Part shown: positions 12,700 to 15,273 of the stretch, piece by piece | Layout: the number at the start of each line of letters is the position of its first letter | How positions within the stretch are numbered: position 1 is the first letter of the stretch | Source of the DNA: a virus | DNA: 23,054 bases | Direction: 5' to 3' (one strand) | UHGV virus genome: UHGV-1326467 | Translations under genes and position numbers: made by a program | Notes under the pieces: model-generated | Databases searched by the model: none | The model's input: only the letters and a program-made list of their open reading frames with translations | What the model was told of the DNA's origin: nothing

Positions 12700-12770
12700 T
12701 TACACGTTAGCAATCTTACATTTTATTGACGTAAGTATGCTGTCGATATAGCATGTAAGTATGCTAACTT
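12700..12770. promoter_or_regulatory. oR / pR / pRM immunity control region
   Basis: Rightward -35 TTGACG (12726-12731), 17-nt spacer, -10 TAGCAT (12749-12754). Operator half-sites CTTACATTTT (12715-12724), GTAAG (12731-12735) and ATGTAAG (12753-12759); direct repeat gtaagtatgc at 12731 and 12755. Confidence 0.55.
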
Positions 12771-12787: not shown

Positions 12788-12991
12788 ATGTTGAAAGCTA
12801 AAGTCGTCACGTTCTATGGCGGTATATCTAAAACCGCTACAGCTCTGGGAGTGACCCATAGTGCTGTATGCCAGTGGGGAGATGTTATCCCAGAAAAACA
12901 AGCGCTCTACATTGAGCGGCTCACAGATGGAAGGCTGAAGTACGACGCTTCCCTCTATCACAAGAATATCAATCCAACGACTCAGCAGTAA
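12788..12991 (+). CDS. cro: Cro-like repressor
   Basis: 67-aa HTH protein (ISKTATALGVTHSAVCQWG) transcribed divergently from cI; GGGGAGG Shine-Dalgarno. Confidence 0.7.
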   Translation: MLKAKVVTFYGGISKTATALGVTHSAVCQWGDVIPEKQALYIERLTDGRLKYDASLYHKNINPTTQQ

Positions 12992-13013: not shown

Positions 13014-13565
13014 GTGGGTATAGAACCTGAATGGAAAGTAGAGAAGCAACCGGCGTGGCTGGTGGCTGCGATTAAAAAAACTATCACCGAACTGGATGGG
13101 GGTTATGCAGAAGCTGCTGAATGGTTAGGCGTTACAGAAAACGCGCTCTTTAACCGCCTTCGCGCAGAAGGGGATCAGATATTCCCGCTCGGTTGGGCAA
13201 TGGTACTCCAACGTGCAGCGAGCACAAATCATATAGCTAATGCTATCGCACGCCACTCCAACGGCGTCTTTGTTCCGCTTGCTGAAGCAGAGGATGTGGA
13301 CAATGGCGACATTAATCAACGGCTTATGGAGTCGATTGAGTGGATTGGAAAACACTCCAGCTTCATTCGTAAAGCAACTGCTGATGGTGTTATTGATGCC
13401 GATGAAAAGGCTCAGATTGAGCAGAACAGCTATCAGGTGATGGCAAAGTTCCAGGAGCATGTAGCGCTTCTGTTTCGCGTTTTTTGTACTCCAGAAAAGA
13501 GTGACGCCCGCGAGTGTGCAGCTCCGGGCGTCGTGGCGAATAAATCTTTGTGTATGGAGAAATAA
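13014..13565 (+). CDS. CII-like regulatory protein (phage 186 CII / CP76-like)
   Basis: 183 aa; segment ALFNRLRAEGDQIFPLGWAMVLQRAASTNHIANAIA resembles the 186 CII HTH region from memory; position immediately after cro. Apparent GTG start. Confidence 0.45.
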   Translation: MGIEPEWKVEKQPAWLVAAIKKTITELDGGYAEAAEWLGVTENALFNRLRAEGDQIFPLGWAMVLQRAASTNHIANAIARHSNGVFVPLAEAEDVDNGDINQRLMESIEWIGKHSSFIRKATADGVIDADEKAQIEQNSYQVMAKFQEHVALLFRVFCTPEKSDARECAAPGVVANKSLCMEK

Positions 13566-13737
13566 TCCGCATGAGCAATTTAATCGTAAATCTTCAATTA
13601 CCGCAACTACGGATGTACCCGATCCCGGGCGTTTCGTCGTTTCGGTATGAGCGCATGGTATGCGGTAAATGGGTCAAGTGTAACCACAGTCGGGCACGCG
13701 GAGTTGTGGGGGTCTTTAACCGGAGGGCAAAAGCGTT

Positions 13738-13917
13738 ATGCGAGAAGTTAACCGGAAGTTCAAAGACCACTATGGCAATCCAGTCAGAGTTATCCGCTGG
13801 GAGCCTGAGACACGTCGCGTCATCTACCTGCGGGAAGGCTATTCCCACGAGTGCTTTAGCCCACTCGATCAGTTTCAACGCAAGTTCAGGGAAGTAGAGG
13901 GCAGCCATGAGCAGTAA
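13738..13917 (+). CDS. small hypothetical protein (59 aa), below the ORF track cutoff
   Basis: MREVNRKFKDHYGNPVRVIRWEPETRRVIYLREGYSHECFSPLDQFQRKFREVEGSHEQ; GGAGG upstream; 3' end overlaps the start of the replication gene by 11 nt. Confidence 0.4.
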   Translation: MREVNRKFKDHYGNPVRVIRWEPETRRVIYLREGYSHECFSPLDQFQRKFREVEGSHEQ

Positions 13918-14818
13918 ATTACACGGCCTCGTATGGGAAGCATGCGCTTTCAAAGGGCTGATAATCTCAGAAATAGCGGTCATGGCTCGCCTGGCAGATT
14001 TCAGTAATGACGAAGGTGTGTCATGGCCAGCGGTAACCACTATTCAGCGACAGATCGGCGCCAAGAGCGAGAATACTGTCCGCAGCGCTATCAAAAAGCT
14101 TCAGGCTAAAGGCTGGCTGAAGAAGCAGGAACGGCGCGTGGGCGGAAAGAATAATTCGAACGTTTATAAACTCAATGTTGACATGCTGGAACGTGCAGCA
14201 GCTGAAGCAAAAATTTTCTACGCAACGCCACGTGAACAATCAAAATTTGATGCCTCAGAATTTGAGGGTTCAAAATTTGAGGGGTCAAATTCTGATGCCT
14301 CAAATAATGGGTCTGTACCCCCTCAAATATTGCGGGAGGACCCCTCAATGGTTGAAGGCGATCCGTCATTAGATCCGTCATTAGATCCGTCATCTAAAAA
14401 ACCTTCTTGTCGGGCTCCTGCGGAACCCGACGATAAGCCGGATCCTGAAGTTGTTATTACCGATAACGCGATCGAAGTTCTGGCACACCTGAATCTGGTC
14501 AGCGGTTCCCGTTACCAGAAATCTAAGACCTCGCTGGAGAACATTCGCGCCCGCCTCCGCGAAGGTCATACCGTTAGCGACTTGAAACTGGTAATTGACG
14601 TCAAGCATGAGCACTGGCATGGCAACGACGAGCAATACCAGTACATGCGACCCGAGACACTTTTCGGCCCTAAAAAATTCGAGGGATATCTGCAAAGCGC
14701 TATCCGTTGGGATGCTAAAGGCCGCCCGCCAAGGGAGTCGTGGGACAAAACCAGACCGCGGGATGTTAATTCAATTAGTCCAGTACAAACCACGATTCCA
14801 CGGGGGTTCCGGGGATGA
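13907..14818 (+). CDS. replication initiation protein, O-like replisome organiser
   Basis: N-terminal winged-helix-like domain and a C-terminal segment (LENIRARLREGHTVSDLKLVIDVKHEHW...) recalled as the conserved phage replication C-terminus; iteron-like repeats lie within the coding linker as in lambda O. Confidence 0.65.
   Translation: MSSKLHGLVWEACAFKGLIISEIAVMARLADFSNDEGVSWPAVTTIQRQIGAKSENTVRSAIKKLQAKGWLKKQERRVGGKNNSNVYKLNVDMLERAAAEAKIFYATPREQSKFDASEFEGSKFEGSNSDASNNGSVPPQILREDPSMVEGDPSLDPSLDPSSKKPSCRAPAEPDDKPDPEVVITDNAIEVLAHLNLVSGSRYQKSKTSLENIRARLREGHTVSDLKLVIDVKHEHWHGNDEQYQYMRPETLFGPKKFEGYLQSAIRWDAKGRPPRESWDKTRPRDVNSISPVQTTIPRGFRG
14236..14395. repeat. candidate replication origin: iteron-like repeats inside the O-like gene
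   Basis: Repeated tgatgcctca (x2), tcaaaatttgaggg variants and inverted atttgaggg / ccctcaaat, followed by three tandem 12-mers gatccgtcatta (14360-14393) encoding DPSLDPSLDPS. Confidence 0.5.
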
Positions 14819-15273
14819 ACATAGCCAAGTCGATCTTTGAATTTATTGAGAAGAATCCCGGCAAAATGCTGCGCGATATCACTGCGGCATTTCCTGGAAC
14901 CAAACCGGTAACAGTGAAGAGCGCTGTTCATCGCCTTTACTACGACGGGGAACTTGCCAGCGTTGAAGTTACTGGTGGGTTTATCTACTTCGTAGCGGGA
15001 TCCATCGATATTGAAGAGTACCTGCCTGGTGGGCTTTCGGGGGAGATTCTTGCCCTTGAAGCGACAGCCAAAAAGCTGGAAGAGAAACGCTATTACCGCC
15101 GTGCGGCGACGGTATGGCAGCAACTTTGTGACAGCAACTGTACGGCTAAAGCAAGAGAGCGATACCTGCGTCTTAAGAATGCTTCTGTTCGAAACGCCAG
15201 AAACATGAATGATTCCGCCGGGTCATGCTATCTGGCCGGAAATTACTGCGGAGGTGACTTGTGCTCCGATTGA
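14815..15273 (+). CDS. PerC-family transcriptional regulator-like protein
   Basis: C-terminal AKKLEEKRYYRRAATVWQQL matches the PerC signature (LE.K..YRRAA..W) as recalled; ATGA overlap with the O-like stop. Confidence 0.5.
   Translation: MNIAKSIFEFIEKNPGKMLRDITAAFPGTKPVTVKSAVHRLYYDGELASVEVTGGFIYFVAGSIDIEEYLPGGLSGEILALEATAKKLEEKRYYRRAATVWQQLCDSNCTAKARERYLRLKNASVRNARNMNDSAGSCYLAGNYCGGDLCSD

Follow-up and report, generated by a model that had tools for sequence, protein, structure and literature searches.

The only DUF4222 protein that has been studied experimentally is RgdR (ECs1581), which is encoded by prophage CP-933C (OI-51) of enterohaemorrhagic Escherichia coli O157:H7 (PMC3378721; PMC10877973). 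RgdR activates LEE1 and the type III secretion system (T3SS), represses motility and binds DNA non-specifically (PMC3378721; PMC10877973), and an Arg-Gly-Asp (RGD) tripeptide near its N-terminus is important for activity (PMC3378721). The second described system of relevance is ymfM (b1148) of prophage e14, whose product, the “cell division inhibitor YmfM”, was equated with SfiC by Ansari et al, who cloned the entire annotated open reading frame (ORF) in pBAD24 (bioRxiv 10.1101/2020.11.19.390815). Expression of YmfM/SfiC blocks FtsZ-ring formation and leads to filamentation. These effects have been demonstrated solely with the complete e14 fragment, in which both of the reading frames considered here are present; the entire region is likewise covered by the library clones from Burke et al (2013) and Mediati et al (2018). 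We compared these systems with a locus in the viral genome UHGV-1326467, of which the entire stretch of 23,054 nucleotides that was analysed is referred to below as the window. At this locus a 59-residue DUF4222 ORF (positions 13738–13917) and the distal half of a longer, YmfM-like ORF (13571–13897) are read from the same DNA in different frames. Our analysis indicates that both ORFs are very probably real genes and that the overlapping frame is kept open by selection. The conserved two-frame arrangement of DUF4222 with ymfM appears to be unreported, and we found no paper in the literature searched that mentions the overlap or maps translation at ymfM.

Coding evidence for the two frames

The initial annotation of the window had singled out a 59-residue ATG ORF on the plus strand, located between the CII-like and replication genes, with an upstream GGAGG and an 11-nt overlap with the replication gene. 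The ORF listing and coordinates agree with this description. The ORF runs from 13738 to a TAA stop at 13915–13917, a GGAGGG Shine-Dalgarno (SD) sequence was read at 13722–13727 (10 nt 5' of the ATG), and nucleotides 13907–13917 are shared with the replication gene; these and the other genes and signals described below from the CII-like gene to the replication gene lie on the plus strand. Its proposed status as a real coding gene was confirmed by Pfam, PHROG and homologue matches and by purifying selection. The protein matches the Pfam DUF4222 profile (PF13973) with 62.4 bits, well over the gathering score of 27 (E = 2.9e-17, profile positions 4–53 of 53), and phrog_1343 with E = 3.2e-31. It is 70–98% identical to more than 100 protein clusters, which NCBI lists under the name “DUF4222 domain-containing protein”. 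The homologous 59-residue ORF is annotated by the Prokaryotic Genome Annotation Pipeline (PGAP) in E. coli genomes, including K-12 derivatives. The gene itself is already known, as a member of a catalogued family that is routinely called by the NCBI pipeline; taken alone it is ordinary, and the interest of the locus lies in its overlap with ymfM.

DUF4222 proteins are single-domain small proteins of ~58–78 residues. The family is small, since clustering at 50% identity yields 42 clusters among 1.8 billion representatives. The window protein falls within this size range and carries the entire conserved core, which was defined from alignments with close and distant members (G13, V16-x-V18, R27-V-I-Y/F, G-Y-x-H-E-C, P42, F46, and F50). 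Among 56 unique sequences, the start codon is ATG in 51, GTG in three and TTG in two, and all relatives have a purine-rich SD sequence 7–12 nt 5' of the start. The AlphaFold model of the 59-residue protein (predicted local distance difference test score [pLDDT] 82) contains five strands and a short helix arranged as a small beta-barrel. A Foldseek search with this model returned only generic small beta-barrels (KOW, Tudor, SH3, and KorB-C) with template modelling (TM) scores of 0.55–0.7 and no match at E ≤ 0.001. The protein is predicted on this basis to adopt a small SH3/KOW-like beta-barrel, and the fold search would indicate a “small binding module” and nothing beyond. PADLOC gave no defence-system match and NCBIfam no specific model. 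Judged from family membership only, the most likely role of the DUF4222 protein, by analogy with RgdR, is that of a small cofactor in binding or regulation.

The same initial annotation had rejected the overlapping 115-residue ORF (13550–13897) in favour of the DUF4222 frame, a decision that did not stand. This ORF, which opens with GTG 13550, is in the same frame as a 108-residue ORF that starts at ATG 13571 and ends at a TAG stop at 13895–13897, and the ATG is the conserved start. The long ORF is a homologue of phrog_1170, the YmfM family (E = 1.5e-13, residues 8–108), with an N-terminal 55 codons that are coding and an overlap half that is kept stop-free, although much of the phrog_1170 match stems from the tail imposed by DUF4222. 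The 59-residue and long ORFs coexist rather than compete. ATG 13571 lies 5 nt past the ymfL stop, behind a GGAGA SD sequence read at 13556–13560, and a spacing of 3–5 nt with GGAGA followed by ATG is kept in all 73 relatives inspected. The position of the long ORF between ymfL and the replication gene is identical in e14, Flotzy, LLS and 720R4.

The part of the long ORF outside the overlap, which we term the N-module (13571–13737, 55 codons), shows a ratio of nonsynonymous to synonymous change (pN/pS) of 0.46 in the long frame, against 1.19 and 1.00 in the other frames. In the AlphaFold model of the long ORF, residues 11–60 form three strands and a long helix with pLDDT of 86–93. The N-module also occurs as a standalone protein of 58–69 residues in other phages. 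It has a weak match to phrog_20047, and at least three unrelated-looking N-module sequence types were present among the loci of our first scan; a fold search with the N-module returned nothing meaningful.

Within the overlap (13738–13897), the comparison of synonymous and nonsynonymous change that had been proposed as a check on the 59-residue ORF came out in favour of this frame, with a pN/pS of 0.12 against 2.3–2.5 for the long frame. Across unique homologous loci, the DUF4222 frame showed 0.12–0.13 and the other two frames 2.3–3.0. Existing annotations disagree at the locus. The MG1655 record (L086:2823–3161) lists only ymfM (b1148), and phage annotators call the long frame alone, as YmfM or hypothetical protein, in phages Flotzy, LLS, and vB_EcoM-720R4, whereas PGAP genomes (L005:1749–1928 and L004:1739–1918) carry only the DUF4222 ORF; the comparative evidence indicates that both are right. 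In effect, the MG1655 annotation and the phage calls imply that YmfM is the sole gene and that the 59-residue ORF is spurious. We find this hardly credible and consider it refuted by the strong constraint on the DUF4222 frame where the long frame is unconstrained, by the existence of Pfam and PHROG families, and by DUF4222 genes that stand elsewhere without an overlapping ORF, including the experimentally studied rgdR.

Conservation of an open second frame

Loci were gathered by scans of viral contigs, with single proteins for the enlarged set. In 74 unique loci of the first scan, the +1 frame relative to DUF4222 contained no stop between the upstream ATG and a point exactly 160 nt inside the DUF4222 gene, and the third frame was always closed. 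The +1 frame was open in 56 of 56 and, in the enlarged set, in 144 of 144 unique window-type sequences, against 0 of 144 for the +2 frame. When the synonymous codons of each DUF4222 sequence were resampled according to local codon usage, the expected openness was 0.08–0.12, and the background from 2225 windows of 52 codons in ordinary genes of the same loci was 0.063. Synonymous sites of DUF4222 in the overlap are near saturation (pS 0.66).

The 160-nt dual-coding stretch, in which the +1 frame encodes the C-terminal ~53 residues of the YmfM-like protein, shows avoidance of stops at synonymous sites. DUF4222 codons that would be synonymous and make TAA, TAG or TGA in the +1 frame are absent throughout: codon 4 is GTT, CTT or CTC only, and codons 18 and 28 are GTT or GTC only, whereas ordinary four-fold sites of the gene use all four bases. 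Codon choice is also coupled to the base that follows. GTG encodes V16 in 10 of the 25 sequences in which the following codon begins with C and in 0 of the 31 in which it begins with A; the corresponding counts are 21 of 36 and 0 of 20 for ATA at I19, and 28 of 48 and 0 of 8 for CTG at L31. These columns provide an internal control within one alignment. Parsimony steps were also counted on a tree built by neighbour joining from 124 unique sequences. The nine four-fold sites that served as controls had a mean of 7.1 purine/pyrimidine steps (range 3–12), whereas the always-dangerous codons 4, 18 and 28 had none, with 5, 8, and 3 T/C steps, respectively. Each of the 56 unique sequences in the first set has the long-frame stop at the same position. 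The stop arises from a rare NTA codon (TTA, ATA or GTA) at position 53 of DUF4222, where the residue varies between L, I, and V.

A separate restriction was observed at DUF4222 codon 43 (Leu, 13864–13866), which is CTC in 31 and CTT in 25 of the 56 unique sequences. CTG at this codon would make no +1 stop, the long frame then reading TGG (Trp). An antisense gene was considered for the 148-residue ORF at 13594–14040 and rejected: one antisense frame was open in 36 of 102 relatives and the other two in 0 of 102.

The open frame recurs in more distant clades. In subclade 1b (P0108-like), the +1 frame is open in 26 of 26 sequences against 0.067 expected, and the usual stop is lacking; downstream lie isrK, a C4 antisense RNA and a Rha/antirepressor gene. 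In clade 2 (P0118-like, with DUF4222 ~50% identical), the +1 ORF is wholly nested within DUF4222, has 55–58 residues and is open in 18 of 18 sequences against 0.022 expected. Here the N-module forms an ORF of its own, read in the third frame, and its stop overlaps the nested ATG as ATGA, TGATG or TAATG. Clade 3 has a junction like that of clade 2, with the nested ORF open in one locus outside the near-clonal lineage considered below.

Two features of these clades are recorded as side observations. In the P0108-like subclade, the +1 frame is stop-free for ~950 nt beyond DUF4222, through both RNA genes (in several allelic types) and in frame with Rha. The odd open stretch of the clade 1b loci contains no tRNA; Rfam identified isrK (RF01394) and C4 RNA (RF01695), at L124:1403–1479 and 1504–1591 and likewise in L132 and L109, followed by Rha in an immI-like module. 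In clade 2 (L250:1184–1375; loci L247–L266), the nested ORF has a transmembrane-like start with a maximum 19-residue Kyte-Doolittle mean of 2.0–2.7, whereas the tail in the window's clade is polar (0.76).

DUF4222 genes without an N-module reading into them present normal frames. Of two sibling loci, L288 is open and L289 closed; in rgdR, each of the alternative frames is interrupted by five or six stops. The open +1 frame is not intrinsic to encoding a DUF4222 protein. From these normal frames, together with the pattern of fusion and splitting, we conclude that the N-module and the tail ORF are linked, occurring as a fusion in some clades and as separate ORFs in others.

Selection has thus left its signature in both frames, as pN/pS for DUF4222 and as stop avoidance, codon-pair coupling, the tree test and recurrence in three clades for the long frame. 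We weighed this against the explanation that only the DUF4222 ORF and a short N-module are functional, the 53 stop-free codons being a by-product of the DUF4222 sequence and its codon usage. Such a by-product would be compatible with a tail that is unconserved and predicted to be disordered, with the standalone N-modules of 58–69 residues that work elsewhere, and with the truncation of the nested ORF in one lineage. It is at odds with the openness of 144/144, 26/26 and 18/18 sequences where 0.02–0.12 is expected and synonymous sites are near saturation, with codon-pair coupling inside the same alignment columns, with zero purine steps at dangerous four-fold sites against a control mean of 7.1, and with the closed frames of DUF4222 genes into which no N-module reads. 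We therefore regard it as unlikely.

Several database chains (P0097, P0072, P0143, P0107, P0130, and P0131) join the N-module or tail to DUF4222; they reflect deletions or frameshifts confined to single contigs, or sequencing errors, at the overlap. The first three were nevertheless considered in relation to a programmed -1 frameshift that would fuse the N-module to DUF4222 at A_AAA_G (13729–13733). The frame relation would fit, as DUF4222 is in the -1 frame of the long ORF, and in the window the possible slip site lies right after GGAGG. However, a TAA at 13717–13719 closes the DUF4222 frame and leaves 18 nt for slippage, and in many close relatives the exact place of the putative slip site, 9 nt 5' of the ATG, is occupied by a DUF4222-frame TAA (GGGCTAAAGCG). 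There A_AAA_G is replaced by CTAAAG with the TAA in frame, and no slippery motif is conserved. DUF4222 also has its own conserved SD sequence and start codon, and the fusion “proteins” are the single-contig variants just described. With neither a conserved slip site nor an overlap open in both frames, a conserved frameshift mechanism can be excluded, and we consider fusion by frameshifting very improbable at this locus.

Why the second frame stays open

The amino-acid sequence of the tail is essentially unconstrained and free to drift. Residues 65–108 are predicted to be disordered (AlphaFold pLDDT < 50). The remark in the initial annotation that the overlapping ORF has a less protein-like translation holds to this extent, for a tail that is unconserved and predicted disordered, but it does not make the frame spurious. 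Because the tail shows no conservation beyond that imposed by DUF4222 and no property that is shared across clades, a function at the level of the peptide is doubtful.

We tentatively favour an explanation at the level of translation, to which we assign somewhat less than an even chance. Ribosomes that start at 13571 would cross the DUF4222 start site and read through the whole DUF4222 gene, a second set would initiate at 13738 in the other frame, and both sets would finish at the start of the replication gene. The flux from YmfL and the N-module may have to run unbroken to the replication gene, for coupling and for protection against polarity, with a polar, disordered tail being tolerated. 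This coupling and anti-polarity explanation is favoured because the tail lacks sequence constraint, the stop is fixed and the stop–start junctions along the operon are tight. RNA structure that could sequester the start sites as a basis for coupling was not significant at any of them (z = -0.26, +1.15, and +0.19).

Alternatively, the +1 tail may be a functional polypeptide, fused to the N-module here and made as a separate nested protein in clade 2, which would aid division inhibition by YmfM/SfiC, for example through stability or partner binding. This proposal differs from the coupling explanation solely in the reason for the open frame. It would account for the fusion and fission of N-module and tail, with the nested ATG overlapping the N-module stop, and for the nested ORF remaining at 55–58 residues in 18 of 18 sequences. 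Compared with stop-free resampling, the composition of the tail is also shifted towards small polar residues (0.50 against 0.40) and away from hydrophobic ones (0.20 against 0.28), with a charge nearer neutral. Set against this are the lack of sequence conservation, the predicted disorder, the absence of a cross-clade property (polar in clade 1a, transmembrane-like in clade 2), and standalone N-modules that carry no tail. We consider a functional tail a real possibility, although we incline against it.

The coupling explanation, and the broader view that the overlap is maintained by selection, must be set against several observations that weigh against one or the other. As a peptide the tail is essentially unconstrained, its pN/pS of 2.3–2.5 being close to the 2.7–3.0 of the non-coding control frame; each of the shifts in its composition amounts to only 1–1.6 standard deviations, and no tail property is common to the clades, clade 1a being polar and clade 2 hydrophobic. 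For the coupling rationale in particular, ribosomes in the DUF4222 frame also end at the start of the replication gene and would already supply it, so that coupling alone may need no second frame, a point that speaks for a functional tail. Furthermore, in clade 1b no protein gene begins at the end of DUF4222 even though the frame is open. In a near-clonal lineage of clade 3 the nested ORF is truncated to 33 residues, from which it follows that full length is not indispensable everywhere. The sequences compared are related and raw counts overstate their independence, for which reason the tree-based and per-clade tests are to be read as the conservative versions. Finally, we found no ribosome-profiling or proteomic data in the literature for either frame. 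Tryptic peptides expected from the DUF4222 frame include VIYLR and FKDHYGNPVR, and the long-frame tail would yield TTMAIQSELSAGSLR.

Genomic setting and comparison with known systems

The window has the setting of a lambdoid (Klebsiella-type) prophage, and its nearest DNA relative is Klebsiella phage Kp4866-6, with 94% identity across 1.9 kb. The early-right operon has the order cro-like, CII/YmfL-like, YmfM-like, DUF4222 and O-like replication gene. The P22-Cro-like gene (12788–12991) lies behind the only promoter-like site of the region (12726–12754), and the whole run of genes from cro-like to O is probably on one transcript from a PR-like promoter; no convincing internal promoter or terminator was found between ymfL and O. 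The CII-like gene (13014–13565, TAA stop at 13563–13565) matches Pfam Phage_CP76 (E = 3.4e-9), and its homologues are named “YmfL family putative regulatory protein” by PGAP. The O-like replication initiator gene (13907–14818; Pfam Phg_2220_C, E = 3e-23, and HTH_36) starts inside the end of the DUF4222 ORF. The TAG of the YmfM-like ORF lies 9 nt 5' of the ATG of the replication gene and in the frame of that gene, so that the two ORFs are separated by this stop and three codons, and read-through or loss of the stop would fuse them.

Inside the O-like gene we observed two iteron-like arrays, one at 14240–14304 with a 15-nt unit (TCAAAATTTGAGGCC-like) present 4.3 times and one at 14360–14393 with 2.8 copies of GATCCGTCATTA, accompanied by several inverted repeats. 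These repeats resemble a lambda-type origin embedded in the initiator gene. An ORF at 14815–15273 overlaps the replication gene by 4 nt and has weak Pfam matches (PerC and DsrD-like winged helix), both under the cut-off.

The rgdR gene was located in the E. coli O157:H7 Sakai genome (ECs_1581; L290:23305–23604), and its product is 41% identical to the window protein over a 49-residue core. Both proteins are small, basic and prophage-encoded, both match the same Pfam domain (82 bits for RgdR and 62 for the window protein), and both genes lie directly upstream of, and overlap, a replication gene, which encodes a primase for rgdR and the O-like initiator in the window. RgdR has 99 residues with an RGD-bearing N-terminal extension, and a 31-residue basic C-terminal tail follows its core, whereas the 59-residue window protein has no extension and no RGD anywhere and ends five residues past the aligned core. 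Also, rgdR resides in a P4-like element with no N-module before it, whereas the window gene is lambdoid and has the N-module upstream. Since the RGD extension and basic tail are missing, the window protein is, judged from its sequence, a member of the DUF4222 family and not an RgdR orthologue, and the LEE1/T3SS and motility phenotypes of RgdR cannot be assumed for it. In both lambdoid and P4-like elements, DUF4222 genes stand immediately 5' of replication genes and are translationally linked to them. This placement hints at a role tied to replication or to expression of the early operon.

The resemblance to e14 extends to the architecture of the overlap. In e14, ymfM likewise lies between ymfL and the replication gene, after its N-module comes a tail read in frame +1 relative to DUF4222, which ends 9 nt before the replication ATG, and phrog_1170 is common to e14 YmfM and the long ORF of the window. 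The N-modules are of different types (“LPQLR..FRYER..CNHSRA” in the window and “RRSQL..PVPGG..FAEWAVGDFN” in e14), and the DUF4222 ORF of e14 starts with TTG, whereas that of the window starts with ATG. All of the ymfM fragments that have been cloned include the DUF4222 ORF with its own SD sequence. The assignment of SfiC to “YmfM” accordingly rests on clones that hold both frames, and either product may be the one that inhibits division. With the locus of e14-like prophages, that of the window included, taken as a conserved unit that codes in two frames, it is possible, although we think it rather unlikely, that the SOS-associated inhibitor SfiC, currently assigned to the 112-residue YmfM frame, depends on the embedded DUF4222 protein or on both products; the +1 frame would then be open for translation-level reasons and not for its peptide.

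The locus represents a clean natural case of a frame that is conserved as open when its peptide sequence is not, and conservation of this kind bears on the recognition of overlapping genes and on translational coupling. Among overprinted phage genes, Rz and Rz1 of lambda form a pair that overlaps out of frame. The present locus is similar in that two same-strand coding frames occupy the same DNA in a lambdoid phage, and the clade 2 ORF is nested in DUF4222 as Rz1 is in Rz. It differs from Rz/Rz1 in that all of the amino-acid conservation resides in one frame, the other being conserved for its openness alone, and in that, in the window's clade, the second frame is a C-terminal extension of the upstream gene and not a separate nested gene.

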